Notes under the pieces: model-generated
What the model saw: only the letters and a program-made list of their open reading frames with translations
What the model was told of the DNA's origin: nothing
The model's database searches: none
Source of the DNA: Escherichia phage JMPW1
DNA: 49,628 nt
Sequence record: NC_041874.1
Reading direction: 5' to 3' (one strand)
Shown: piece after piece, positions 1 to 49,498 of the stretch
Layout of the letters: every line of letters starts with the position of its first letter
Position numbering within the stretch: the stretch's first letter is position 1
Translations under genes and position numbers: made by a program

Positions 1-60
1 ATTGCATGGTTTGCAACAGTTGGTTGATTTGTTGCTTAGATTGCAATGATTGTGAGAGGG
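1..60. repeat. GATTGCA/TTTGCAA repeat tract (continues at 49590-49628 if the ends are joined)
   Basis: attgcatgg, tttgcaac, gattgcaatgattg at the left end; ctgattgcgattgattgcaaatgatg at the right end. Confidence 0.55.
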
Positions 61-105
61 GGGGATCTAGTGTTGCCCGGTTCGCCTGGTAGTCATCTCC
101 ATTTT

Positions 106-120
106 TAGCAAAAAGTGCTA
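106..120. promoter_or_regulatory. palindrome TAGCAaaaagTGCTA (operator-like, no -10 at the usual distance)
   Basis: Perfect 5+5 inverted repeat. Flanks match the consensus ATAGCACTTTTTGCTAAAA on the minus strand. Lies in the large divergent control region. Confidence 0.5.
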
Positions 121-136
121 TCGATTACACTTTACC

Positions 137-165
137 TTGTCACAGATGTAATATTTGTCTAGAAT
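137..165 (+). promoter_or_regulatory. sigma70-type early promoter candidate
   Basis: TTGTCA (137-142), 17-nt spacer, TAGAAT (160-165); overlaps iteron 147-162. Confidence 0.5.
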
Positions 166-437
166 CGCACTTGTGACAAAATTACACACTGTGACGCCTC
201 TAAATATACATATAGATATATGTATCTATATAATATATATAGTGTTTTCTTTATTTATATATATAGATAATTATATTGTAATAGTTGTGTATAGTTGTCT
301 TACATTGTCTAGCGTACTGTTGGCATATTTCTATCTGCATGTTTATATATACAGTACTTTTTTGAGAGCTATATATTTCTATAGTGACTCTAGACAGCTA
401 GACAAATGTTACACAGCTTAATATCGGCTCGCAGTCA

Positions 438-466
438 TTGACAGCTCTGTATCGCACTGTCACAAT
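438..466 (+). promoter_or_regulatory. sigma70-type early promoter candidate
   Basis: TTGACA (438-443), 17-nt spacer, CACAAT (461-466); 59 nt upstream of the first gene. Confidence 0.4.
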
Positions 467-524
467 GTCAATTGTTGACACATTATGACGCCATTTACAC
501 ACGAATAGACAAAGAGGATATATT

Positions 525-1040
525 ATGAGCAATACCAATCAGGAATTAAAAATCACCGATATGATTCGACTAACCTGCGATGCAATGTATCGCGACAAAG
601 GCATGAATGAGTTCTCTTTCGTGGCTGATGATATGGCCCTCGAGGCCGCGCGATTCTACTTCCGTGACCAGGAGGTAAGTGATAGCGATCTTGAATCTGC
701 CGCTGCCGGATGGGTGGACCAGAACCAGGGTGAGGTGGAGAAGCGATTCAAGTCTGCTTTCATTACGCCAATCATTACCCGGCACTTTTGCAAGTATGGC
801 AAGGTGGCAAAGGTGAAGGTAGGCCGGAATGACGCTGCAATCACAATGATAACGGTTATCGTTACCGACGAAGAGATTCCCGTGAAGAAGCGCCGCAGTC
901 GGAAGAAAGTTAGCCTGGCCGATTGCCTGGATTCGTTTGTGGTTGATGTGGGTAAACTGGCTGATAGCGAATTGATGACTCGTGACGTAAACGAGATCGT
1001 TCGCCAGATGAAGGCGCATATCGAAAAGTGTGGACTGTAA
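525..1040 (+). CDS. hypothetical early protein (171 aa)
   Basis: ATG 7 nt after AAAGAGGA SD; first ORF after control region A; no recognisable motif. Confidence 0.6.
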   Translation: MSNTNQELKITDMIRLTCDAMYRDKGMNEFSFVADDMALEAARFYFRDQEVSDSDLESAAAGWVDQNQGEVEKRFKSAFITPIITRHFCKYGKVAKVKVGRNDAAITMITVIVTDEEIPVKKRRSRKKVSLADCLDSFVVDVGKLADSELMTRDVNEIVRQMKAHIEKCGL

Positions 1041-1055
1041 GCACTGAGCGGTAAA

Positions 1056-1098
1056 TAGCACTTTTTGTTAAAACCGGATCGGGATAACGCGGTATAGT
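1056..1098 (+). promoter_or_regulatory. palindrome-promoter cassette
   Basis: TAGCActtttTGTTA, 22-nt spacer, TATAGT 1093-1098; hairpin GGGATAAC/GTTATCCC spans the -10. Confidence 0.55.
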
Positions 1099-1129
1099 TA
1101 TCCCATCAACAACGAATGAGAAAACGAAG

Positions 1130-1324
1130 ATGGAAACGCAAATTGACGTAGTGGTTGTTCAGCGAGACTCAACTCATGAAAAGGGTCTGTTTAAGAAGGG
1201 AACGGAAATCACGATCGACCTTGAGGATATGGTTGCTTATCACTCTGGACTTACCTGGAACGTGGTGCGCGTAGGCAGCGACTATAAACTCAAAGGCTTT
1301 AACACTTACTTTGCAGAGGCTTAA
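1130..1324 (+). CDS. hypothetical early protein (64 aa)
   Basis: ORF directly downstream of promoter cassette 1056-1098; GAGAAAACGAAG leader. Confidence 0.55.
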   Translation: METQIDVVVVQRDSTHEKGLFKKGTEITIDLEDMVAYHSGLTWNVVRVGSDYKLKGFNTYFAEA

Positions 1325-1326
1325 TC

Positions 1327-1797
1327 ATGACAACCATTACCGTATTTCTGGCTAAAGATGAGATTGATGGCGAAATGTCATTCTTCGCATTTGAGCACAA
1401 AACCGGATCGCACTGGCATATGTATAGCCGCTACACGGTTATCGATATCAACTCATACCGCGCAGGCTCACTTACTGAAAAGCTGGGTTGCTTCATTGGA
1501 GCTATCAAGGTGAACAATGGCTGCGAGTGGGCAGATGAGCACGAAGAGCGCCGCATGTGCAATATGATTAACCCGGTCTATCTTGAGTCGTTCGAGCTTG
1601 ATGCTGATGTGAACATTAAGGTGAGAAAGTCTGGTGAGTTATTGCCAGGGATGCGTGTGCTGACTGGTTACTCGGGCCGTAAGGTGTGGCGCACCGTATC
1701 GAAGATTCGCCAGCGTTCTGCAACATGCTACAGCGTATTCTTTGAAGATGGCTGGAATATGATGTCCGGTAGTGAGGTGAAGTATCTCACCAAATAG
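1327..1797 (+). CDS. hypothetical early protein (156 aa)
   Basis: Starts 3 nt after upstream stop; its TAG stop is the TAG of the next palindrome. Confidence 0.6.
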   Translation: MTTITVFLAKDEIDGEMSFFAFEHKTGSHWHMYSRYTVIDINSYRAGSLTEKLGCFIGAIKVNNGCEWADEHEERRMCNMINPVYLESFELDADVNIKVRKSGELLPGMRVLTGYSGRKVWRTVSKIRQRSATCYSVFFEDGWNMMSGSEVKYLTK

Positions 1798-1837
1798 CAC
1801 GAATTGTTAAAACCGGATCGGGGTATCTTGCTATAGT
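1795..1837 (+). promoter_or_regulatory. palindrome-promoter cassette
   Basis: TAGCAcgaatTGTTA, 22 nt, TGcTATAGT 1832-1837; hairpin GGGGTA/TACCCC. Confidence 0.55.
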
Positions 1838-1875
1838 TACCCCATCGAAACGAGATACCAATCAGAGGAATAACC

Positions 1876-2106
1876 ATGTCAATCGTCAAGAACCAGCAAG
1901 CAATCGATTAAACCAATAACAACCGCTTTGCTATTTTCATCACATCGATAGGTCGCCGATTTGCAGTCAAAGCCGTTCCGGGTGGATACAAAACCTACAT
2001 GGAAGATAAAGGAAAGTGGGTGTGGTGCGAAAACCTTGCAAACTTCCTAGTCTGGAATGCAGACCTCCAGGGCTTTGATGATATCAGCACCTTAATTGAG
2101 GAATAA
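1876..2106 (+). pseudogene. early gene interrupted by in-frame TAA (codon 12, 1909-1911)
   Basis: Canonical cassette leader ACCAATCAGAGGAATAACC-ATG. After an 11-aa ORF the same frame stays open for 64 more codons (TNNNRFAIF...STLIEE) to TAA 2104-2106. Confidence 0.45.
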
Positions 2107-2112
2107 ATAATT

Positions 2113-2340
2113 ATGCCACGTTACAATAAACAGACTAAACTCACCCGCGTAAACGGGCACATGATTCCGGCTGAATCCACTCACTACGCAATGGGCGCAA
2201 AGCACGGAGTCTATTTCAAGTGGCGCGGTCAATGGAACTTCACGGCGGTTAGTAATTTCTACATGCGCGTCCCAGGTATTGACCCGCAGACGGTCGTAGA
2301 GGACTCAATCGGCAACAACAAGATCGAGGTGCTAAAATGA
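2113..2340 (+). CDS. hypothetical early protein (75 aa)
   Basis: ORF track; ATG 7 nt after preceding stop. Confidence 0.55.
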   Translation: MPRYNKQTKLTRVNGHMIPAESTHYAMGAKHGVYFKWRGQWNFTAVSNFYMRVPGIDPQTVVEDSIGNNKIEVLK

Positions 2341-2447
2341 ACTTCAATACAATTGCTTTATGGTCTGCCGTCTGGTTCTTCTGTATGGGTCATGTCATGG
2401 TTGGAATCGTAGTTATGCTGCTACTGTGTGCGGGAGCGTTCGAATGA
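2337..2447 (+). CDS. putative 36-aa single-pass membrane peptide
   Basis: ATGA start/stop overlap with upstream gene; MNFNTIALWSAVWFFCMGHVMVGIVVMLLLCAGAFE is almost entirely hydrophobic. Confidence 0.3.
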   Translation: MNFNTIALWSAVWFFCMGHVMVGIVVMLLLCAGAFE

Positions 2448-2617
2448 TGCGCATTCTGATTTGCATGATGGCGGCGGTCGCACTGGCTATCCTGGTAGTG
2501 TCCGGCTGCGGAGAGGCCAAAGAGCGATGCCATGAAACCGGAAACCAGGTTACTACTTTCGTGATGGTTGGCAACGTATTGCTACCAATCACATCAAATG
2601 AAATCACTTGCGAATAG
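2444..2617 (+). CDS. small putative lipoprotein (57 aa)
   Basis: ATGATG overlaps upstream TGA; signal peptide MMRILICMMAAVALAILVVSG-C with lipobox VSGC. The longer 2360 start in the ORF track is less likely. Confidence 0.45.
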   Translation: MMRILICMMAAVALAILVVSGCGEAKERCHETGNQVTTFVMVGNVLLPITSNEITCE

Positions 2618-2626
2618 GATGTTAAA

Positions 2627-2818
2627 ATGGCTGATTTTATGCACCAAATGATTGCAGTATTCAAAGGTAGTGATGACCAGGAGGTGAAAGAGTGCTTTAC
2701 TGTAGACAAGCCTTATAGCGCATCGCTAACCAGCTTCGGGAATATCTCATTGCTTGATGATAACGGCGACCCCTGGGTATTCGACGAAGACACTGATTGC
2801 TTCGAAATTAAAGAATAG
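2627..2818 (+). CDS. hypothetical acidic protein (63 aa)
   Basis: ORF track; D/E-rich; TAG stop lies inside next palindrome. Confidence 0.5.
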   Translation: MADFMHQMIAVFKGSDDQEVKECFTVDKPYSASLTSFGNISLLDDNGDPWVFDEDTDCFEIKE

Positions 2819-2858
2819 CACTTTTTGTTAAAACTCAATATCGGGGTTGCGCTATAGT
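2816..2858 (+). promoter_or_regulatory. palindrome-promoter cassette
   Basis: TAGCActtttTGTTA, 22 nt, TATAGT 2853-2858; hairpin GGGGTT/AACCCC. Confidence 0.55.
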
Positions 2859-2889
2859 AACCCCATCGACAACAAACGAGGACACTAAC

Positions 2890-3378
2890 ATGAAAATCAA
2901 ATTGCTTTGCACTGGCGGTTACAAGGGCTTTACTCGCGACCTGGAAGCGGATCCTATCGTGATTGATGCGGTGAAGTGTGATGATAGCCTCGGCGGCTAC
3001 CGCGTGAAGGTTGACGACCTGGTGAAAGCTGGCGTGTACGATCTGGGCTATGGACTTTCGGTTAGCCCGGTAGTTGGTCCGGCAGACTTCAACGAGAAGG
3101 ATGGAACGATGTTCTTCTTCGAATGGGAAGTCCAGGCAAATCCTAAGCCGCGCAAGGTTCGTCTTCTCAGTAATGGCGGCTACCCGATGCGTCCAGGTTA
3201 TGAGAATCGCACATTCCCGGTTATCGTTGACTTTGAAGAAATCACCGCACACTTAGCTTATATCAACGGTGAACAGCTTCATGCTGTTGGATTCGTGGGA
3301 TGTATGAATCAAGAGGCGCTATGCTTCTTCCATTGTAAAGCCGAGCCGTTCGATATTGAGTGCGAGTTAGTATACTAA
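2890..3378 (+). CDS. hypothetical protein with internal tandem duplication (162 aa)
   Basis: Follows cassette 2816-2858. Repeats KIKLLCTGGYKGF...PIVIDAV and KVRLLSNGGYPMRPGY...PVIVDFE. Confidence 0.6.
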   Translation: MKIKLLCTGGYKGFTRDLEADPIVIDAVKCDDSLGGYRVKVDDLVKAGVYDLGYGLSVSPVVGPADFNEKDGTMFFFEWEVQANPKPRKVRLLSNGGYPMRPGYENRTFPVIVDFEEITAHLAYINGEQLHAVGFVGCMNQEALCFFHCKAEPFDIECELVY

Positions 3379-3419
3379 GCACGAATTGTTAAAAGGGGAT
3401 TTGGCCTGACTGGTATAAT
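3377..3419 (+). promoter_or_regulatory. palindrome-promoter cassette
   Basis: AAGCAcgaatTGTTA, 22 nt, TGgTATAAT 3414-3419; hairpin GGGGATT/AATCCCC. Confidence 0.55.
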
Positions 3420-3449
3420 CCCCGCATAAACCACTAAGAGGAAAGCATC

Positions 3450-3956
3450 ATGTTAAAATTAGAAGACGTAAAATTCCCGATTAAATTTATCAGCCTAGGT
3501 TGCGGTGAAATTACATTCACCAGTGAAGATAAAGGCAAGTGGGACAATGATAAAATGTCTCAGCTTAAGTTGGATTGGTTTATCAATCGGCACAATGAAG
3601 TAAATCCTGAAAACTCAGCCAAGAAGGATTACCATTACATTATTAGTGGTAGTCAGGATGCGTACGAAAAGTATGATGGTTGGAAAATTGTTCGATCAAT
3701 CTTCCACCCCGCAAAGCCAGAAATTAAACCGATGTTACAATGCGCTCAGATCGAGAACATTCCATTGAGCGCGACGCTAAAAGGAGTGCAGCTTGATGAT
3801 AAATCCTGGCTTGAAATAACCGCCACGCCGAAAACTATTGAAGTGCACGACGATATCGTCACTCTTCTATTGCATTACGGCAGCTTTAAGCACAAAGCGG
3901 TATCAGGTGAAATCAGCATTAAGCGCGGAACACTTGTGCGCTATGAGGTGAAATAA
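3450..3956 (+). CDS. hypothetical early protein (168 aa)
   Basis: Follows cassette 3377-3419; AAGAGGAAAGCATC-ATG. Confidence 0.6.
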   Translation: MLKLEDVKFPIKFISLGCGEITFTSEDKGKWDNDKMSQLKLDWFINRHNEVNPENSAKKDYHYIISGSQDAYEKYDGWKIVRSIFHPAKPEIKPMLQCAQIENIPLSATLKGVQLDDKSWLEITATPKTIEVHDDIVTLLLHYGSFKHKAVSGEISIKRGTLVRYEVK

Positions 3957-4030
3957 TGGCTGCATGGGTTTTGATTATCTTAATGAGTACCGGGCCGGAT
4001 CACGTATACATGGAAAGTCAGCAATCATGA
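3956..4030 (+). CDS. possible 24-aa micro-ORF
   Basis: TAATG overlap with upstream stop; MAAWVLIILMSTGPDHVYMESQQS; very short, so weak. Confidence 0.2.
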   Translation: MAAWVLIILMSTGPDHVYMESQQS

Positions 4031-4102
4031 AACAAGGTACGGGAAGTAATTGCAGAGAATAAGCCGTTCGGATATGAAGTAAAAACGATGTGCGTTAAAC
4101 GA

Positions 4103-4145
4103 TAGCACGAATTGCTAAACCTTCCGCAAGGCCATTTGATATAGT
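4103..4145 (+). promoter_or_regulatory. palindrome-promoter cassette
   Basis: TAGCAcgaatTGCTA, 22 nt, TGaTATAGT 4140-4145; hairpin AAGGCCA/TGGCCTT. Confidence 0.6.
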
Positions 4146-4185
4146 GGCCTTATTGAAGCAAGGCAACCAATCAGAGGAATCAGCT

Positions 4186-4392
4186 ATGGCTACACGACTA
4201 ACTCAGTGGCAGATTTACGACAAGGCCTCACGCCTTCGTGAATCGCTTCGCGGACTGACGCCGAATGACCGAATGGAGATTATCGGGCACGCATTGCACG
4301 AACTAACATCTCAGGACGTAATCTATCATTCATGCGGCAATAAATTCTGGAACGTGACATTCGAGGTAAAGAAAGATGAGCAAAACTCATAA
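4186..4392 (+). CDS. hypothetical early protein (68 aa)
   Basis: ATG after conserved leader AACCAATCAGAGGAATCAGCT. The GTG 4144 start in the ORF track lies inside the -10 element. Confidence 0.5.
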   Translation: MATRLTQWQIYDKASRLRESLRGLTPNDRMEIIGHALHELTSQDVIYHSCGNKFWNVTFEVKKDEQNS

Positions 4393-4663
4393 GTTAAAAA
4401 TCGCCCCGATACATTTCATTGGTGTAATGAACGGAACCAAAACGGCAGAGTTCCGCATCAATGACCGCAACTTCCAGGTTGGTGATATCCTTGAGCTACG
4501 CGAGTTCGATCGTGACGACTTTACCGGGTGGGAAGTTCACGCCAGGGTGTCCGATGTTACAGACGTGACGCCATACATCAATCGCGGTTATGACGAGCAA
4601 GAATGCGACTTCACGCAATACGTGATGTTATCAATCAAGCCTTACAGGAAGGTTAGACCATGA
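4376..4663 (+). CDS. DUF3850 / ASCH (PUA-like) domain protein
   Basis: HKLKIAPIHFIGVMNGTKTAEFRINDRNFQVGDILELREF matches my memory of the DUF3850 N-terminal signature. Confidence 0.6.
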   Translation: MSKTHKLKIAPIHFIGVMNGTKTAEFRINDRNFQVGDILELREFDRDDFTGWEVHARVSDVTDVTPYINRGYDEQECDFTQYVMLSIKPYRKVRP

Positions 4664-5298
4664 AATTTGAGTGCGTATCAAGTAGCGGATCTGGTTTTAA
4701 GTGGGGAAAAACTTACAAAGGTGTTCGCGTAAATGATGACAGCTTCATCATTACTGATGAGAACGGTTGCAACGTGAACGTTGTACGGCGTCACGAATAT
4801 CAGGAAATTTTCCTGCCTTATGGCGGTAGCTCAAAATATATCTTCCATCGAATCGTGGATGGTGTTAAATTTAACGACGTAATCGAAGCAATCAACCAAC
4901 TGCATAATAAAGAGGTAAAATTTATGAAATTCGAATGTATCAGCGACAACACTAAAAAATTTACCGTTGGAAAAATTTACAACGTTCCTTCTGAGCACGC
5001 TAAGCACACTTTAGCGCTGACCGACGACACAGGCTGCCAACGCATTGCAACCGTGACGCACAATGGCGAAGGTCTTCGCTGGAACAGCGGCGGCACTAAG
5101 TTCGCAACTTTCGGTAAGAAGCGCAAGCGCAATTTCCGCGTCAACGGCAAGATCAACACCAGCAAGATTAGCAACGTCAAGCCTATTAATGTTGACCACA
5201 AGCCAGAGCTTGATCTTAAAGGCAAGGTGGATATTCCTGATATGGCTTTAGCGATCCTTATTCTTGTTGCTCTAATTTCTATCATGCTCATCATGTAA
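4660..5298 (+). CDS. membrane-anchored protein with two tandem MKFEC mini-domains
   Basis: Repeat 1 starts MKFECVSSSGSGFKWGKTY and repeat 2 MKFECISDNTKKFTVGKIY. Repeat 2 keeps its own AAGAGG-ATG at 4909-4926. C-terminal TM helix MALAILILVALISIMLIM. Confidence 0.6.
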   Translation: MKFECVSSSGSGFKWGKTYKGVRVNDDSFIITDENGCNVNVVRRHEYQEIFLPYGGSSKYIFHRIVDGVKFNDVIEAINQLHNKEVKFMKFECISDNTKKFTVGKIYNVPSEHAKHTLALTDDTGCQRIATVTHNGEGLRWNSGGTKFATFGKKRKRNFRVNGKINTSKISNVKPINVDHKPELDLKGKVDIPDMALAILILVALISIMLIM

Positions 5299-5305
5299 TT
5301 TTAAC

Positions 5306-5339
5306 GGGGAATTGGCTCTGAGCGGTTCCCCTTTCTTTT
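5306..5339 (+). terminator. intrinsic terminator fused to SD
   Basis: GGGGAA...TTCCCC stem then TTTCTTTTGGAG. Confidence 0.55.
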
Positions 5340-5351
5340 GGAGAAAACACT

Positions 5352-5462
5352 ATGCCAGACTTTTCTAACTGGAATAACGAGCCGCCATCATTTCAGGAGT
5401 TGCTATTCTGCCTCCTGGTCCTGACATTATCTCTTAAGGGTGTTTTATGGCTACTATCATAA
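5352..5462 (+). CDS. possible 36-aa membrane peptide
   Basis: GGAG SD fused to terminator T-run; MPDFSNWNNEPPSFQELLFCLLVLTLSLKGVLWLLS; overlaps next gene by 16 nt. Confidence 0.3.
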   Translation: MPDFSNWNNEPPSFQELLFCLLVLTLSLKGVLWLLS

Positions 5463-5665
5463 CAGCAGAAGATGCAGCACGCGACGCAGTGGAAGGAATG
5501 CGCCCAAATACCTCCAGAATAGCACACTACTACAAATCTGAGGTGTCGGCAGTGCAATTGGTCAACGAAATTTTAAGGCTACCACAAGTCGATTCAGCGC
5601 GCGTGGTGACGTGCTTAAAAAATTATTTTTGCATCGCTATTAAAACGAATAGCACGAATTGCTAA
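5447..5665 (+). CDS. hypothetical early protein (72 aa)
   Basis: ORF track; stop lies in palindrome 5650-5664. Confidence 0.45.
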   Translation: MATIITAEDAARDAVEGMRPNTSRIAHYYKSEVSAVQLVNEILRLPQVDSARVVTCLKNYFCIAIKTNSTNC

Positions 5666-5692
5666 AACCTATCAAGGGGAATGCGCTATGAT
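5650..5692 (+). promoter_or_regulatory. palindrome-promoter cassette
   Basis: TAGCAcgaatTGCTA, 22 nt, TATGAT 5687-5692; hairpin GGGAAT/ATTCCC. Confidence 0.5.
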
Positions 5693-5722
5693 TCCCATGC
5701 ACCAACAAACGAGGAAGCACTC

Positions 5723-6169
5723 ATGAAACACTTAATTTGCATTGAAACGCCTAACGACCAGTACACCCTGCACGGCATTGGAATGTTCAAAGGTCACTAC
5801 ATGACAGCAAGTATTCATGATTCGCGTTGCGTCAATGGCGATCTGATGATTACGTCAAAAGAAGTAACTCCGTACATTATGCAGAATCTTGGCAATAACG
5901 AATATATGGCCTACGGATGCAATGCGGTGTACAAGCATATCAAGATCAGAAAACGCGTTGTTCGCGCATTCAAGAAAATTGCAATGAAACAATGGAAGAT
6001 GAGCAAGAAAGATGCTGGACGCTGGGCGCGTAACGTTGCAGATTCATACTTCTACCGTAACGGTGAGTCCTGCCACTTCCTTATCGATGAACTTATGGAA
6101 AACTACGGCGGCGACTTCAGTCAGGGTGGCTTTGACGCTTGGGCTGACTACGAGGTCGATTACTGGTAA
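5723..6169 (+). CDS. hypothetical early protein (148 aa)
   Basis: ATG after ACGAGGAAGCACTC. The 5681 start in the ORF track overlaps the -10 hexamer TATGAT 5687-5692. Confidence 0.55.
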   Translation: MKHLICIETPNDQYTLHGIGMFKGHYMTASIHDSRCVNGDLMITSKEVTPYIMQNLGNNEYMAYGCNAVYKHIKIRKRVVRAFKKIAMKQWKMSKKDAGRWARNVADSYFYRNGESCHFLIDELMENYGGDFSQGGFDAWADYEVDYW

Positions 6170-6212
6170 TAGCACGAATTGCTAAAACTTGCTCAAGGGC
6201 ATTTGATAGAAT
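6170..6212 (+). promoter_or_regulatory. palindrome-promoter cassette
   Basis: TAGCAcgaatTGCTA, 22 nt, TGaTAGAAT 6207-6212; hairpin AAGGGCAT/ATGCCCTT. Confidence 0.6.
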
Positions 6213-6252
6213 GCCCTTCGTTGAGTTAAGCAACCAATCAGAGGAATAAATC

Positions 6253-6864
6253 ATGGATAAAATTACCATTTGGGGCCAGACAATCAACCTGTTTCTCGGC
6301 ACGCGCCGCGTAGCAATCTTTGACTTTGATGGAACACTTAGCGATGGATCTGGTCGACTTCACCTGCTACCTACAAAGGATTTGCACTTAACTGAAAGCT
6401 GGTCCGAGTTTAACCGCGCGGCAATATTTGACAACCCTATCCAAAGCACGATCGATGTGATGAACTCTATGTATGCCGCTGGTCATCATGTGATCATTTT
6501 AACCGGGCGAAGTGATGAGGTGCGTTACGCATCTGAGTTGTGGCTTAAGCATCACGGCGCTCGATATGATTACCTGATTATGCGACCATACACCGATAAC
6601 CGGAAAGACACAGTAATGAAAGAAGAGGCGGTGCGCGCGATCGGCATTGATAACATTCTGGCGGCCTGGGATGACTCACCGCAAATTATTCCATTATTCC
6701 GCTCACTTGGAATAACCACTTACGCTGTAGTTGACTATGGCGATAAAGTTCACGATCATTTAAAATCTCACGGGGTAGATGAGGTTTGCAATCATGAACC
6801 ATCTGAGCCGCTACCGCCATTTGGTGAGAAAATTTGCATTAAGTGCAAGGAGTTATTGAAGTGA
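6253..6864 (+). CDS. HAD-family polynucleotide 3'-phosphatase-like protein (T4 Pnkp C-terminal-domain type)
   Basis: DFDGTL motif I, ILTGR motif, RKDTVMKEEAV and WDDSPQIIPLFRSLGI. These resemble T4 Pnkp phosphatase-domain blocks (RKDDVVKEE, IDDRTQVVEMW) as I remember them. Confidence 0.75.
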   Translation: MDKITIWGQTINLFLGTRRVAIFDFDGTLSDGSGRLHLLPTKDLHLTESWSEFNRAAIFDNPIQSTIDVMNSMYAAGHHVIILTGRSDEVRYASELWLKHHGARYDYLIMRPYTDNRKDTVMKEEAVRAIGIDNILAAWDDSPQIIPLFRSLGITTYAVVDYGDKVHDHLKSHGVDEVCNHEPSEPLPPFGEKICIKCKELLK

Positions 6865-6971
6865 ACCTATACGAATTTATTGCAGCACATCCGGTACTAA
6901 CAGTTATCATTCTGTTAATCATAAACTCCACCATCATCAATGTGGCGAAATTATTTTTAGGGAGATACTGA
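6861..6971 (+). CDS. possible 36-aa membrane peptide
   Basis: GTGA overlap with upstream stop; MNLYEFIAAHPVLTVIILLIINSTIINVAKLFLGRY; its stop lies 1 nt before the next ATG. Confidence 0.3.
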   Translation: MNLYEFIAAHPVLTVIILLIINSTIINVAKLFLGRY

Positions 6972-6972
6972 C

Positions 6973-7545
6973 ATGAAAACAGCTATCATTTTAAACGGTG
7001 CGCCTGGCGCGGGAAAAGACACTATAGGGTGCATCCTGGCTGACACTTACGATCATGTAGCGCTACGCAGCTTTAAAGCTCCAATGTTTGAGATTGCCCG
7101 AGCAATCCTGGGTGAGACTAATTTTGAGTATTTCATGTTCTTGTATGAGGACCGTCGCTATAAAGAAGAGCCAGCATCAATCCTGAACGGTAAAAGCCCG
7201 CGCCAGTTTATGATCTGGATTAGCGAGGAGGTTATCAAGCCGCAGTTCGGAAATCGCTTCTTCGGTATGCGAGCGGAAAGCAAGGTGAAAGAGTCTCACT
7301 CCCTTTCGGTATTTACTGACGGTGGATTCAAAGACGAAATCTTGCAGATGATTGAAGGTGAAATCCAGGTCAAGCTATGTCGAATCCATCGCAACGGTTG
7401 CAACTTTGACAACGACAGTCGCGACTACATCTATCTTGACGATATGATCGGGGTCAACGGTTATCAGGAATGTGACTTCTTCTCTGTCGAAGGTCATCCA
7501 GAAATTACCGCTCAGCACATAGCCGCCACGTTCATCAACAAATAG
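6973..7545 (+). CDS. P-loop kinase of the phage dNMP-kinase family
   Basis: Walker A GAPGAGKDT; LNGKSP and SPRQFMIWISEE blocks resemble T4 gp1 dNMP kinase (GKDT, LNGKSP). Confidence 0.7.
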   Translation: MKTAIILNGAPGAGKDTIGCILADTYDHVALRSFKAPMFEIARAILGETNFEYFMFLYEDRRYKEEPASILNGKSPRQFMIWISEEVIKPQFGNRFFGMRAESKVKESHSLSVFTDGGFKDEILQMIEGEIQVKLCRIHRNGCNFDNDSRDYIYLDDMIGVNGYQECDFFSVEGHPEITAQHIAATFINK

Positions 7546-7585
7546 CACGAATTGCTAAAACGTCGGTGGGGTGACTTGATATAGT
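7543..7585 (+). promoter_or_regulatory. palindrome-promoter cassette
   Basis: TAGCAcgaatTGCTA, 22 nt, TGaTATAGT 7580-7585; imperfect hairpin GGGGTGAC/GTTACCTC. Confidence 0.6.
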
Positions 7586-7617
7586 TACCTCATCGACAAC
7601 GAAGAGAGAAAATCGAA

Positions 7618-7827
7618 ATGATGGTATCAACTGATAAGTTTTTCACTTGCACTAAAACTTCTGAAGTATTCGAACTGGTTCATACTGATAATGGTGACTT
7701 CATGCATGACGGTTGCGACGTTTTCATTGAAGTGAAAGAAAGCGACTATGACTATGGGGTTTATTATAACCCGGCAGTGAACACTCAGTTTTTTACACCG
7801 ATCGAAGAGGAAGGAGAAGAAGCATGA
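7618..7827 (+). CDS. hypothetical acidic protein (69 aa)
   Basis: Follows cassette 7543-7585; acidic C-terminus EEEGEEA. Confidence 0.5.
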   Translation: MMVSTDKFFTCTKTSEVFELVHTDNGDFMHDGCDVFIEVKESDYDYGVYYNPAVNTQFFTPIEEEGEEA

Positions 7828-8168
7828 TCACGATTAACCTGTCAGATAAACAAGCGCGTGAAATCCTCGATACTATCGGCGAACAGCTTCACGTAAAAGT
7901 CGCTACCGCTGAGATTCTTAACCAGATCGAAAGACAGCTAACCCCGGTGTCGACGAATCAGGCTGAGTTCTCAATCTGGAAAAGCGAGCGAATCCTGCCA
8001 AATATCATCAAGGCATGGAAGCGCAAGAATAAAAAAGAAATCAATGTTGATGACTTATTTTCTGATGAATTAAGTCCTTCAAAGGTTGCTCAATATCAGT
8101 TGCGATACATGGAATCAGTTTGCAATCAGGTTTTAAATGTCAACTTTTCATTCGGGAGTGGTAAATAA
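7824..8168 (+). CDS. hypothetical protein (114 aa)
   Basis: ATGA overlap with upstream gene. Confidence 0.5.
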   Translation: MITINLSDKQAREILDTIGEQLHVKVATAEILNQIERQLTPVSTNQAEFSIWKSERILPNIIKAWKRKNKKEINVDDLFSDELSPSKVAQYQLRYMESVCNQVLNVNFSFGSGK

Positions 8169-9330: not shown

Positions 9331-9354
9331 AACCCGCTTCGGCGGGTTTTTTTA
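9331..9354 (+). terminator. intrinsic terminator (end of early region)
   Basis: ACCCGC ttcg GCGGGT followed by TTTTTTT. Confidence 0.8.
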
Positions 9355-9365
9355 TGCCTGCAATA

Positions 9366-9388
9366 TGGTAAAATAGCACTAAATGTTA
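9366..9388 (+). promoter_or_regulatory. extended -10 promoter overlapped by palindrome (terS)
   Basis: TGgTAAAAT (9366-9374); its last T is the first base of TAGCActaaaTGTTA (9374-9388), 18 nt before the terS ATG. Confidence 0.45.
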
Positions 9389-9406
9389 AACAAAGAGGAT
9401 GGATTT

Positions 9407-31116: not shown

Positions 31117-32181
31117 ATGTTCCAAGTATTCACATCAAGTCAGCTTTCTAATGACGAGTATCATAGCAACGAAGGTTGGGCGGCAGAGTATGTAAGCGGT
31201 TCGAGCCTTGCAGAAATTTATCAGACTTGCCCGGCTAACTGGCGATTCAAGAAGAACGAGACGACTAAAGCGCTGGAGTTTGGTACTCAGTCGCACACCA
31301 ACTTTGAGAGCCGAGATCTGTTTACTGCATCGTATGCGCGTTGTCCGGCTCCGGCAGAGTTTAAAGATCTCATTACTTCGCAGGCGGCGCTGGCAGCAAA
31401 ATTAAAATCTTTTGGCCTGAAAGGTACATCCGGTAAGCAGTACCCGGACCTCATCAAAATGATGGTTGATTGTGGCGAAGACCTTAACGTTCAATACCTG
31501 ATTGAACTGATCGCAGAGGCTGAGGCGCGCGCTGAAGGAAAGAAACTCGTCGACGCTGATAAATACGACGCCTGCATGAAGATGAGAGCTATACTTGAAC
31601 AGAACCCCGATCATGAAGCGTGCATCAACAGCGAAACAGCGCAGCGTGAAATCTCAATATTCGGTGAAATATCCGGCGTCAAGGTTAAGGTTCGACTAGA
31701 TCATCTTGACTACAAAGAGAATGTACCAGGTCGTGTACTGACTGGTTATGATGAGAATGGTGATCCGGTATTTGAAGACGTAATTTTCCCGGAAGCACTG
31801 ATTATCACAGATTTCAAAACTACGATGAGCGCCAACCCGTTAGAGTTCCCGAGACTGGCATACAATCACGGTTATTACCTGAAGATGGCATTGCAGCATG
31901 ACCTGCTACGTCGCGCAATCCAGGCTGGCGCTTTTGAAGGAAACTTCCCGGAAGATATTCCGATCGTAGTTCGATTGCTTGCGCAGGAGAAAAAAGAGCC
32001 TTATATCGCACTGGCTTACCGTATGACTATGGAGCAAATCAGGATCGGTCGTAACCAGTACATTAGCGTAGTCCACACTTACAAGGCTTGCTCTGAAATG
32101 GATGTTTGGCCTGGGTACGCTGGCGACGCAAGCGAGATCGAACTTGAAACGCCATCATGGGTGCGTTACCAAAATAAGTAA
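31117..32181 (+). CDS. RecE-like PD-(D/E)XK exonuclease
   Basis: N-terminal DEYHS...VSGSSL...EFGTQSHT block (DUF3799/RecE-type, from memory); sits upstream of erf and ssb. Confidence 0.65.
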   Translation: MFQVFTSSQLSNDEYHSNEGWAAEYVSGSSLAEIYQTCPANWRFKKNETTKALEFGTQSHTNFESRDLFTASYARCPAPAEFKDLITSQAALAAKLKSFGLKGTSGKQYPDLIKMMVDCGEDLNVQYLIELIAEAEARAEGKKLVDADKYDACMKMRAILEQNPDHEACINSETAQREISIFGEISGVKVKVRLDHLDYKENVPGRVLTGYDENGDPVFEDVIFPEALIITDFKTTMSANPLEFPRLAYNHGYYLKMALQHDLLRRAIQAGAFEGNFPEDIPIVVRLLAQEKKEPYIALAYRMTMEQIRIGRNQYISVVHTYKACSEMDVWPGYAGDASEIELETPSWVRYQNK

Positions 32182-32182
32182 A

Positions 32183-32224
32183 CGGCACAAATAGCTAAAC
32201 AAATAATTAATGAGGTGTTATAAT
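32183..32224 (+). promoter_or_regulatory. degenerate palindrome-promoter cassette
   Basis: CGGCAcaaatAGCTA, 21 nt, TGtTATAAT 32219-32224; hairpin GAGGTG/CACCTC; leader ACCAATCAGGAG. Confidence 0.45.
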
Positions 32225-32255
32225 GCACCTCATACACCAATCAGGAGAAGTTAAG

Positions 32256-36291: not shown

Positions 36292-36332
36292 AAAATAAAA
36301 AACGCGTAGAAGGATGTTAACCCGCTACGCGT
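36292..36332 (-). terminator. intrinsic terminator after HTH gene
   Basis: Minus strand: ACGCGTAG ...15 nt... CTACGCGT then TTTTTATTTT. Confidence 0.6.
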
Positions 36333-36340
36333 CGTTTGTT

Positions 36341-36806: not shown

Positions 36807-36849
36807 TAGCACTTTTTGCTAAAAACGTTTACTTTATGCCGTGTATTAT
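36807..36849 (+). promoter_or_regulatory. palindrome-promoter cassette (helicase); shared divergent region with HTH gene
   Basis: TAGCActtttTGCTA, 22 nt, TATTAT 36844-36849. Confidence 0.5.
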
Positions 36850-36886
36850 AGCGTAAACGTTACAACGATTCAAAGGATTAATAGCC

Positions 36887-39318: not shown

Positions 39319-39358
39319 CACTTTTTGTTAAAACTGCCGGAATGGAATCTGGCATTAT
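39316..39358 (+). promoter_or_regulatory. palindrome-promoter cassette (dam)
   Basis: TAGCActtttTGTTA, 22 nt, TGgCATTAT 39353-39358. Confidence 0.5.
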
Positions 39359-40347: not shown

Positions 40348-40381
40348 TTGCTAAAAATACCCGACGAAAGTCGGGTATAGT
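40339..40381 (+). promoter_or_regulatory. palindrome-promoter cassette
   Basis: CAGCActaatTGCTA, 22 nt, TATAGT 40376-40381; hairpin CCCGAC/GTCGGG in the spacer. Confidence 0.5.
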
Positions 40382-42335: not shown

Positions 42336-42369
42336 TTGATAAAAACTCCCGAAGGGATTCGGGCATAGT
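42327..42369 (+). promoter_or_regulatory. palindrome-promoter cassette (degenerate)
   Basis: TCGCActaatTGATA, 22 nt, CATAGT 42364-42369; hairpin CCCGAA/TTCGGG in the spacer. Confidence 0.45.
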
Positions 42370-45900: not shown

Positions 45901-45929
45901 CACAATAAACTCCTTAGTTGACGGTGTGA

Positions 45930-45972
45930 ATGATACACCGCCAATGGTACACGCGTTTTGCAAAAAGTGCTA
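45930..45972 (-). promoter_or_regulatory. palindrome-promoter cassette
   Basis: Minus strand: TAGCActtttTGCAA, 22 nt, TATCAT (45935-45930); hairpin GGTGT/ACACC around the -10. Confidence 0.5.
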
Positions 45973-46393: not shown

Positions 46394-46429
46394 GGCGCTA
46401 GCTCCTGATTGGTTATCTTGAATAAGGCC

Positions 46430-46472
46430 ACTTTATCAAATGACCTTACGGCAATATTAACAAATCGTGCTA
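46430..46472 (-). promoter_or_regulatory. palindrome-promoter cassette
   Basis: Minus strand: TAGCAcgattTGTTA, 22 nt, TGaTAAAGT (46435-46430); hairpin AAGGTCA/TGGCCTT; AACCAATCAGGAG leader. Confidence 0.55.
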
Positions 46473-46911: not shown

Positions 46912-46944
46912 TTTTAATTCCTTTGTTTCGTTTGGTGTGGGAGT

Positions 46945-46988
46945 AATATACCTTACCCCCTATTGTATGTCTTTAGCAATTCGTGCTA
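46945..46988 (-). promoter_or_regulatory. palindrome-promoter cassette
   Basis: Minus strand: TAGCAcgaatTGCTA, 23 nt, TATATT (46950-46945). Confidence 0.5.
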
Positions 46989-48030: not shown

Positions 48031-48061
48031 GATTATTTCCTCGTTTGCTGCTGATGGGATG

Positions 48062-48104
48062 ACTATACCAGCCATCCCGGATGCGCGTTTAGCAAAAAGT
48101 GCTA
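48062..48104 (-). promoter_or_regulatory. palindrome-promoter cassette
   Basis: Minus strand: TAGCActtttTGCTA, 22 nt, TGgTATAGT (48067-48062); hairpin GGGATG/CATCCC. Confidence 0.6.
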
Positions 48105-48492: not shown

Positions 48493-48525
48493 TTTGTTTT
48501 TCCTCAATCTCGTTTCGATGAGGTA

Positions 48526-48568
48526 ATTATGCCAAATCGCACCGATCGAGTTTTAACAAAAAGTGCTA
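48526..48568 (-). promoter_or_regulatory. palindrome-promoter cassette
   Basis: Minus strand: TAGCActtttTGTTA, 22 nt, TGgCATAAT (48531-48526). The palindrome lies inside the last codons of the C5-MTase gene. Confidence 0.55.
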
Positions 48569-49466: not shown

Positions 49467-49498
49467 TGCCTGAGTCCTCTGATTGGTTGATGTGATGA

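Follow-up and report, generated by a model that had tools for sequence, protein, structure and literature searches.

Two described systems come close to the elements treated here, which are promoter-like cassettes with an embedded stem-loop, found repeatedly in the genome of Escherichia phage JMPW1 (sequence record NC_041874.1; the whole stretch of 49,628 nucleotides is called the window below). The first is the promoter-early stem-loop (PeSL) cassette of the T4-like phages RB49 and phi1 (Arbiol et al. 2010, PMC2839356; Comeau et al. 2014, PMC4122927), with similar cassettes in the T4-like phages PST and nt-1. PeSL cassettes are intergenic, recur in many copies among small, non-essential early genes, begin at the stop codon of the upstream gene, contain a sigma-70-type promoter with a consensus -35 element and an AT-rich tract, and carry a Shine-Dalgarno sequence and a start codon at the 3' end. 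Their stem-loop is often of the type GGGG...CCCC and lies most commonly between the -35 and -10 elements or over the -10; one of them cut the expression of a downstream lacZ as strongly as rrnB T1, and the roles proposed are those of an attenuator or terminator for upstream transcription and of a linker for the shuffling of open reading frames (ORFs) (PMC2839356, PMC4122927). The second system is a 21-nt direct repeat, aaATAGCACnnnTTGnTAAAA, of the phages TLS, T1, Rtp and Rogue1 (German, Kropinski et al. 2024, PMC11447400). In TLS it is present in 21 copies about 76 nt before start codons, co-oriented with transcription, with T, G and A subtypes of the central triplet, and a function as stoperator, enhancer or UP-like element has been suggested. 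The same re-annotation gives just three sigma-70 promoters, its supplementary table holds the repeats and canonical terminators with nothing between repeat and gene, and TLS transcription is reported to depend on the host enzyme (PMC11447400).

The window is that of a T1-like coliphage. The relatives retrieved belong to Drexlerviridae, Tunavirinae, Tunavirus; over bases 500-7000 (6.5 kb compared) the identity to Enterobacteria phage vB_EcoS_IME167 is 100%, the same bases find matches in 271 phage records, mainly T1-like phages of Escherichia, Shigella and Klebsiella, and phage T1 itself has the same cassettes and the same seven hairpins in its early region. Between the repeat, called the box here, and the predicted transcription start of the cassettes lies a G+C-rich stem-loop whose sequence differs from copy to copy while its pairing is maintained by compensatory change. 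With moderate confidence, we propose that these are composite gene-boundary cassettes, the stem-loop of which is read as sense RNA in read-through transcripts and marks the 3' boundary of the upstream message.

Cassette geometry, covariation and strand of pairing

A pattern search for the box TAGCACnnnTTGyTAAA found 24 copies in the window, where 0.46 would be expected by chance, and all of them run with the local genes. With one degenerate copy (GGCACAAATAGCTAAAC, in the cassette at 32180-32245) that was missed by the pattern search, the repeat consensus aaATAGCACnnnTTGyTAAAA defines 25 cassettes, which cluster among small ORFs at 1-9.4 kb (plus strand) and 45.9-49.6 kb (minus strand) and are sparser at 35-43 kb. 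In most window copies a hexamer of the extended -10 type stands exactly 22 bp further on, with a probable start (A) 7 nt beyond it. The box itself is an inverted repeat, TAGCA-N5-TGyTA (1056-1070 and every other copy), with a predicted pairing probability of about 0.8 as a mini-hairpin, and its C/T variation preserves a G-C or G·U pair in RNA. Scanning IMG/VR for the box gathered 294 unique cassettes, 237 of which have a -10-like hexamer, and in 215 of these 237 the hexamer lies 22 bp 3' of TTGyTA. Among the unique IMG/VR cassettes the signature of an extended -10 element is seen, -14 being G in 88% and -15 being T in 48%; the predicted +1, 7 nt past the hexamer, is A in 88%, and a C stands before it in 76%. 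Because the distance from TTGyTA to the hexamer is 22 bp and not 17, TTGyTA is not a -35 element at normal spacing; a -10 element at 17 bp from it was ruled out, since the TnTGgT at positions 32-37 lacks the A of the second position. The arrangement resembles a promoter of the extended -10 type, upstream of which the conserved box covers about -49 to -31. A standard sigma-70 promoter scan with 16-18 bp spacing missed the cassettes entirely as promoters, which is possibly the reason why only three promoters were given in the re-annotation of TLS.

The box also serves the end of the upstream gene. Its TAG is the upstream stop codon in 33 of 54 cases (for example at 1795-1797, 2816-2818 and 4103-4105), a TAA inside the box (offset 13) takes this part in 7, and a stop lies 3-4 nt upstream in 12; as these three serve different frames, the box comes near to a three-frame stop. 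None of the upstream ORFs extends into the hairpin, and 53 of 59 cassettes with a hairpin follow a co-directional ORF. The leaders on the other side are A/C-rich, poor in G and T and predicted to be unstructured, with a recurrent CAACCAATCAGAGGAAT ahead of start codons and CATCGAAACGA at the predicted start (4166-4186, 6229-6249 and, on the minus strand, 49478-49492).

Pairing was assessed on 98 non-redundant representatives of the 215 fixed-offset cassettes, which differ at more than 8 of 38 positions and were picked by box and hexamer, not by folding. The mean minimum free energy (MFE) of the 38 nt past the box is -10.3 kcal/mol, compared with -7.06 ± 0.17 when 3' arms are swapped between cassettes, a control that keeps the column composition, and with -5.0 ± 0.2 when bases are shuffled within spacer and discriminator. 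In a gapless alignment of all 98, the commonest fixed register is 51.9% paired vs 47.5 ± 1.2 in shuffles, with a covariation score of 0.244 vs 0.195; 0 of 500 shuffles reach the pairing or the score, and all slid versions are lower. This effect is modest because pairing registers differ between cassettes. It is much larger in a sub-family of 32 sequences selected by the loop motif ATTTG alone, in which pairing is 81.6% vs 66.2 ± 1.6 in shuffles and 40-51% in slid controls, 8 of the 10 pairs show two-sided changes (50 cells vs 19.8), and stems such as AAGGCCA/TGGCCTT, AAGGGCA/TGCCCTT, GAGGGCA/TGTCCTC, AGGGGTA/TACCCCT and GAGTGCA/TGCACTC replace one another. The first-pass annotation of this DNA had claimed that the stems differ between copies with the pairing kept, and had named beforehand a comparison with shuffled controls as the check on which compensatory covariation should stand or fall; in the ATTTG-loop sub-family the covariation score is 0.472 vs 0.242, a value that 0 of 500 shuffles attain. 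The covariation is therefore real and statistically solid. Furthermore, among close orthologues a paired column carries 0.12 variants and an unpaired one 0.27, so the stems are under purifying selection, and five double compensatory events were seen among these orthologues. Since pairing is maintained by compensatory change, it is a nucleic-acid structure that is under selection. Rfam has no match at the gathering score in the whole window, and at E <= 1 there is only a chance match to a small nucleolar RNA in 1-8000.

The helices fall into two positional classes. Among the 98 representatives 74 helices were found, 41 of which wrap the hexamer (wrap class), the 3' arm beginning inside the hexamer in 32 and the hexamer lying entirely in the loop in 9; of the other 33, which lie upstream (spacer class), 21 end inside the hexamer and 12 end before it. 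Within the searched segment, -34 to +4, which bounds these limits, the helices begin no earlier than -34 and end no later than +4, and 3' ends peak at -1 and at -12/-10. An independent profile of pairing probability over 122 nt is highest from -31 to -1 and lowest in the leader from +6 to +10, the mini-hairpin of the box aside. Stems across the family have 5-13 bp (mode 7-9) and loops 4-14 nt. Spacer-class loops have 4-6 nt, with GNRA or UNCG in 8 of 15 four-base loops (p = 1e-7), and the 10 nt past the stem contain 4.3 T in the spacer class, where the T-rich hexamer and a T-rich discriminator form the tail, and 1.3 T in the wrap class. In a fixed-register covariation test the spacer class, as a mixed set, gave 41.3% vs 41.1%, which is not significant, because its registers are heterogeneous; the register-free MFE of the spacer only is significant (-5.28 vs -3.09 ± 0.2), and so is the arm-swap comparison, which is likewise register-free. 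In the window the wrap class occupies the two terminal regions of small ORFs and the spacer class 39-43 kb. A stem that flanks or includes the -10 had been reported for most cassettes, which holds for 13-14 of the 25 in the window, and for just about 55% of the hairpin-bearing cassettes in the family as a whole.

As to the strand that pairs, wobble positions flanked by Watson-Crick pairs within the helices are G·T in 61 cases and A·C in 10, compared with 27.8 and 12.8 in arm-swap controls (binomial p = 6e-4). The sense strand folds better in 74 and the antisense strand in 23 of the 98 cassettes (MFE -10.3 vs -7.9, p = 4e-9), of the 32 ATTTG-loop sequences 21 have U·G and 9 have U-A at the pair -17/-8, and DNA parameters give a hairpin stability of about -5 kcal/mol per strand. 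The G·T excess, the better folding of the sense strand, the weak stability as DNA and the RNA-type tetraloops favour pairing in sense-strand RNA. An action at the DNA level had also been considered, in which a cruciform or single-strand hairpin, N4-like or supercoil-sensing, would present or hide the -10 and so tune initiation. It would suit the share of hairpin cassettes, about 55%, with the hexamer in the loop or 3' arm, the frequent end of the 3' arm at -1 and the fact that the stems form a G+C-rich discriminator. However, a cruciform needs both strands paired, yet the pairing is strand-asymmetric, and the complementary strand would hold A·C mismatches where the sense strand has G·T. Moreover, the helices hold no constant place with respect to the hexamer, 33 of the 74 ending at or before it, and the stems are short (6-10 bp, with loops of 4-14 nt). 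A DNA hairpin of about -5 kcal/mol with such a stem is well below what cruciform extrusion needs. None of the six window ORFs of at least 450 amino acids (terminase, tape measure, tail tip, tail fibre, helicase and a DUF3987 protein) is an RNA polymerase, for which reason transcription of the window should rely on the host enzyme, in agreement with the TLS literature. In addition, about 25 Webervirus-like contigs from IMG/VR (L138-L164) have, about 40 nt before the start of pnk, a stop codon, the hairpin GGCCCC-GCGA-GGGGCC and then a ribosome-binding site, without box, hexamer or U-run; one variant has the loop GCAA, which is still GNRA. Since these relatives keep the hairpin without a box or a -10, the hairpin is separable from the promoter. 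We consider a DNA-level role very unlikely.

The opposite strand offers a further reading, that the hairpins terminate antisense transcription with TTTTA, from the complement of the box, as T-run; indeed, on that strand spacer-class stems are followed by TTTTAGCAA within 0-3 nt (for example at 40378-40357 and 42363-42348). The antisense strand folds worse, however, its G·U pairs become A·C, the T-run of the wrap class stands 5-10 nt from the stem, and the terminator rule applied below is passed by 0 of 38 wrap and 4 of 33 spacer antisense copies, all of which makes this reading extremely improbable.

Hairpins and neighbouring features in the window

A stem of 6-15 bp lies between box and +1 in 17-18 of the 25 window cassettes. 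In 13-14 it encloses the hexamer, or its 3' arm starts in the last bases of the hexamer and ends at about -1; three cassettes (39316, 40339 and 42327) have a compact spacer stem ending at the first bases of the hexamer, and one (36807) has a large-loop hairpin. No convincing hairpin was found in seven window cassettes (104 minus, 9374, 16081 minus, 19843 minus, 35265, 48552 minus and 49526 minus). The features are given below, with MFE in kcal/mol and z for the RNA MFE against dinucleotide shuffles; z is at or below -2.5 in 13 of the 18 folded window cassettes.

1056-1074, plus strand: box TAGCACnnnTTGyTAAAAC of the first cassette, a copy of the 21-nt direct repeat of the T1 family, at about -49 to -31 from the predicted start
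1081-1104, plus strand: hairpin GGGATAAC/GTTATCCC with an 8-nt loop; MFE -14.5, z -3.33
1820-1843, plus strand: hairpin GGGGTA/TACCCC around TATAGT (1832-1837); MFE -13.6, z -2.66
2843-2864, plus strand: hairpin GGGGTTGC/GTAACCCC around TATAGT (2853-2858); MFE -14.9, z -5.24
3395-3423, plus strand: hairpin GGGGATT/AATCCCC with TATAAT (3414-3419) in loop and 3' arm; MFE -15.7, z -2.96
4128-4151, plus strand: hairpin AAGGCCATT/AGTGGCCTT around TATAGT (4140-4145); MFE -12.9, z -3.17
5677-5696, plus strand: weak hairpin GGGAAT/ATTCCC around TATGAT (5687-5692); MFE -8.4, z -1.24
6195-6218, plus strand: hairpin AAGGGCATTT/GAATGCCCTT around TAGAAT (6207-6212); MFE -13.8, z -3.49
7562-7597, plus strand: long hairpin around TATAGT (7580-7585), its 13-15 pairs including several G·U; MFE -18.7, z -5.65
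32210-32233, plus strand: hairpin ATGAGGTG/CACCTCAT with TATAAT in the loop; MFE -13.8, z -5.22
36301-36333, minus strand: box-associated hairpin ACGCGTAG/CTACGCGT around TAACAT, followed by TTTTTTATTTT; full-terminator variant (cassette 36340 minus)
36824-36861, plus strand: hairpin AACGTTTAC/GTAAACGTT wrapping the hexamer, with TATTAT in a large 20-nt loop
39335-39354, plus strand: spacer-class hairpin TGCCGGA/TCTGGCA ending at the first base of CATTAT, tail TTATTATCTC; z -2.53, terminator-like in the scan described below
40357-40378, plus strand: spacer-class hairpin ATACCCGAC-GAAA-GTCGGGTAT, tail AGTTATTTCA; MFE -15.4, z -5.55, terminator-like in the same scan
42348-42363, plus strand: spacer-class hairpin CCCGAA-GGGA-TTCGGG directly 5' of CATAGT; z -1.72, terminator-like in the same scan
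45918-45944, minus strand: hairpin GGCGGTGT/ACACCGTC around TATCAT; z -1.18
46422-46449, minus strand: hairpin GTAAGGTCATTT/AAGTGGCCTTAT around TAAAGT; MFE -14.0, z -4.78
46939-46960, minus strand: hairpin GGGGGTAA/TTACTCCC around TATATT; z -3.46
48056-48078, minus strand: hairpin GGGATGGCTG/TAGTCATCCC around TATAGT; MFE -14.9, z -2.60
48515-48568, minus strand: cassette with box and CATAAT, hairpin decayed (GGTGCGAT); z -0.03

All eight stems listed in the first-pass annotation are present, with slips of 1-2 nt (for instance, they now run over 1820-1843, 3395-3423, 5677-5696, 6195-6218 and, on the minus strand, 48078-48056). In the hairpin at 1081-1104 the hexamer TATAGT (1093-1098) takes up part of the loop and the start of the 3' arm, and the predicted +1 is A1105. 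The orthologues of the weak hairpin at 5677-5696 have a longer stem, AGGGGAAT/ATTCCCCT; the hairpin at 6195-6218, 5' of the polynucleotide kinase gene, shows compensatory changes in its orthologues; and the decayed hairpin of the cassette at 48515-48568 is kept in other phages as TGGGGTAGT/ATTACCCCA. The 3' arm of the long hairpin at 7562-7597 reaches about +6, and that of the hairpin at 40357-40378 overlaps the TAT of TATAGT. At the positions orthologous to cassette 36340 (minus) two relatives (L044 and L065) have different stems and keep the T-run; since this cassette and its orthologues consist of box, wrap hairpin and T-run, there is a continuum from the U-less hairpin to a full terminator.

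Several other features of the window stand beside the cassettes. At 9331-9392 there is a canonical bidirectional terminator, AACCCGC-TTCG-GCGGGTT with a T-run, and 25 nt past it a copy of the box without -10 or hairpin, directly before a ribosome-binding site. Positions 190-400, between the divergently transcribed early regions, are strongly AT-rich with short repeats of the tatata and atagat types, and a consensus-like promoter, TTGACA-17-CACAAT, lies at 438-466, 5' of the first gene. The orthologue of T1 orf75 (1877-2106) has an in-frame TAA at 1909-1911, codon 12, where relatives have TCA, so that the gene downstream of cassette 1795 is interrupted in the window phage.

Possible roles in termination and recombination, and a proposed action on read-through RNA

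The simplest reading of a G+C-rich hairpin behind a stop codon is that of an ordinary, efficient Rho-independent terminator, which would make each small early gene its own transcription unit. In GenBank record OL960579 these hairpins are entered as rho-independent terminators (WebGeSTer), a terminator consensus scan flagged the stems at 39335, 40357 and 42363 as terminator-like, among the cassettes spacer-class stems alone, and one PeSL stem-loop acted as a strong terminator. By the rule of d'Aubenton-Carafa, however, d exceeds 0 for just 1 of the 38 hairpins of the wrap class and 6 of the 33 of the spacer class, whereas four canonical terminators of the same phage have d = +17 to +34 with tail T-scores of 4.3-4.9; the scarcity of T past the wrap-class stems is contrary to an efficient terminator, and neither the curated T1 record nor the ARNold-based TLS annotation lists the cassette hairpins as terminators. 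Because so few hairpins pass the rule, termination is at most partial for most copies, and as the late region is rich in canonical terminators, the phage uses a proper U-tract where one is needed. Efficient intrinsic termination at most copies is unlikely, the reading that makes every small early gene a separate unit is quite improbable, and partial attenuation by the spacer class is plausible. The earlier remark that no U-run follows the stems is correct for the wrap class; it fails for the spacer class, with its T-rich hexamer and discriminator, and for cassette 36340 (minus), which runs into TTTTTTATTTT.

Another reading takes the stem-loops mainly as recombination signals and the cassettes as linkers by which single ORFs are shuffled between phages, effects on RNA being secondary. 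In comparisons of the window with LeonhardEuler, Sfin-6 and SA30RD, all three differences examined are single-ORF indels with edges at the box or at the leader and ribosome-binding site (window sites 1041-1053, 2875-2895 and 4182-4376, against L193, L194 and L001), and in PeSL the crossovers of mini-circles lie in or near the stem-loop. Yet this is a sample of just three indels, homology within the cassette is lowest in the variable stems, which would hinder homologous exchange, and both the covariation and the G·U bias indicate selection on folding and not on sequence identity. That recombination is the main function seems to us very doubtful, about as doubtful as the cruciform.

Three more candidates were rejected. 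A site for a dimeric protein does not agree with stems that differ between copies. A processing site for RNase III of the T7 type needs double-stranded RNA of about 20 bp, or about two helical turns, for which the stems are too short. Sites of the nut type with boxA and boxB do not agree with hairpins that are not conserved within one phage, nor with a GAA-type box that is unlike boxA.

We return to the proposal that the stem-loop acts in read-through RNA. In each cassette the 19-nt box, which usually supplies or abuts the upstream stop, is followed 22 bp on by the extended -10 element and 7 nt later by the predicted start, and a short A/C-rich leader carrying the ribosome-binding site closes the unit; the stem-loop, free in sequence and fixed in pairing, fills the space between box and +1. 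Because the predicted start of the cassette lies at the 3' foot of the hairpin, the hairpin can be present only in RNA read through from upstream; transcripts from the cassette's own promoter would begin just 3' of it and be free of it, as had been expected earlier from the position of the 5' arm and as follows from the predicted +1. The option of read-through RNA, offered at that time as one of two, fits the G·T bias, the folding of the sense strand, the GNRA and UNCG loops, the promoter-less relatives and the ORFs that end before the hairpin. A hairpin with a U-rich tail, as in the spacer class and in cassette 36340 (minus) with its T-run, would attenuate or terminate read-through, and the U-less wrap class would more likely give a 3'-terminal protective or processing hairpin or a weak pause; the sequence analysis shows the structure, its covariation, the sense-strand bias and where it stands with respect to the promoter, and from this fit we infer the action on read-through RNA and the choice between attenuation and stabilisation. 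The overlap with the -10 may arise because box and +1 leave about 35 bp for both signals; the last two bases of the hexamer (-8 and -7) would then also open the 3' arm, where they pair with T/A at -17/-18.

Several points weigh against this proposal. The low d values allow most copies a partial termination at best, the annotations of T1 and TLS leave the hairpins out, and the stabilising role of the U-less hairpins is something we purely infer. About a quarter to a third of the cassettes are without a hairpin, and these follow a co-directional ORF in 23 of 32 cases, compared with the 53 of 59 given above for cassettes with one, a weak difference (p = 0.04). The frequent end of the 3' arm precisely at -1 finds no explanation in a function in RNA only. 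Single changes in close orthologues, 19 to G·U vs 15 to A·C, are uninformative. In addition, a search of the literature gave no study of transcription start sites, and none by Term-seq or RNA-seq, for any Drexlerviridae phage, and no experimental start-site, 3'-end or RNA-stability data for T1-like phages; a text search with the repeat sequence returned unrelated papers only, and a paper on T1-like phages of E. coli O157:H7 gives just counts of predicted promoters and terminators.

A bolder form of the proposal, which we consider rather unlikely, is that box and hairpin together are a phage-wide RNA punctuation, a host or phage factor recognising the conserved box in read-through RNA and cutting or releasing the RNA at the U-less hairpin. 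If so, each early message would stop at the very point at which the next one starts, one stretch of 50 bp would be a promoter as DNA and an end signal as RNA, the -10 would double as loop or arm of the hairpin or as its U-rich tail, and the 3' edge of the hairpin would be -1.

T1-like phages are common therapy candidates and laboratory contaminants, and their transcription signals are essentially unmapped. Taking repeat, 22 bp, extended -10, start and RNA hairpin as one unit gives a testable promoter map for the whole family, and the embedded hairpin explains why automatic tools call 'terminators' inside promoters. A new mechanism would be opened only if the U-less hairpins define RNA ends in an unusual way.

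Comparison with known systems

The cassettes share single traits with several well-known elements. With Rho-independent terminators they have in common the G+C-rich stem, the frequent GNRA or UUCG loops, the position just past a stop codon and the pairing of the sense strand; they differ in that the wrap class has no U-tract, the spacer class has an interrupted U-rich tail and most copies fail the discriminant, the exception being cassette 36340 (minus), a full terminator with a T-run. Intercistronic or 3'-terminal mRNA-stabilising hairpins, of the repetitive extragenic palindromic (REP) type, are stable, U-less, untranslated and placed between co-transcribed genes. The cassette hairpins are likewise stable, U-less, outside the translated region and between co-transcribed genes, but each of their stems is distinct, with no repeated sequence family, and they are embedded in a predicted promoter. 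The hairpin promoters of phage N4 have a conserved stem of 5-7 bp and a 3-nt loop and are read by the virion RNA polymerase on extruded DNA. They resemble the cassettes in the short inverted repeat at a promoter, whereas the cassettes have variable stems, loops of 4-14 nt and strand-biased pairing, and no phage polymerase is found among the six ORFs of at least 450 amino acids.

The 21-nt repeat of TLS and T1 is the same element as the box of the window, which matches aaATAGCACnnnTTGnTAAAA, is co-oriented and lies about 76 nt before the start codon. The difference is one of context: the repeat has been treated alone (PMC11447400), without the -10 at a fixed distance and without the covarying hairpin.

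The closest described system is PeSL. As in PeSL, the T1-type cassettes are intergenic and start at or next to the upstream stop codon, their stem-loops often consist of a G-run and a C-run and lie ahead of the -10 or overlap it, and many copies stand among small ORFs of unknown function, with single-ORF indels at the cassette edges in the three comparisons made. There is no sequence homology, however, the T1-type cassettes being those of Drexlerviridae siphoviruses, and they have a strict 19-nt box at -49 to -31 where PeSL has a consensus -35 and an AT-rich tract, an extended -10 at a fixed 22 bp, and stems mostly without a U-tract. PeSL has moreover been put to a functional assay, whereas the T1-type cassettes are known here from their sequence. 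The idea of PeSL is in this way extended from T4-like myoviruses to an unrelated siphovirus family, and the shared design suggests convergent evolution. With the T1-type cassettes, a PeSL-like composite is found in a phage family not related to that of PeSL; the principle is not new.

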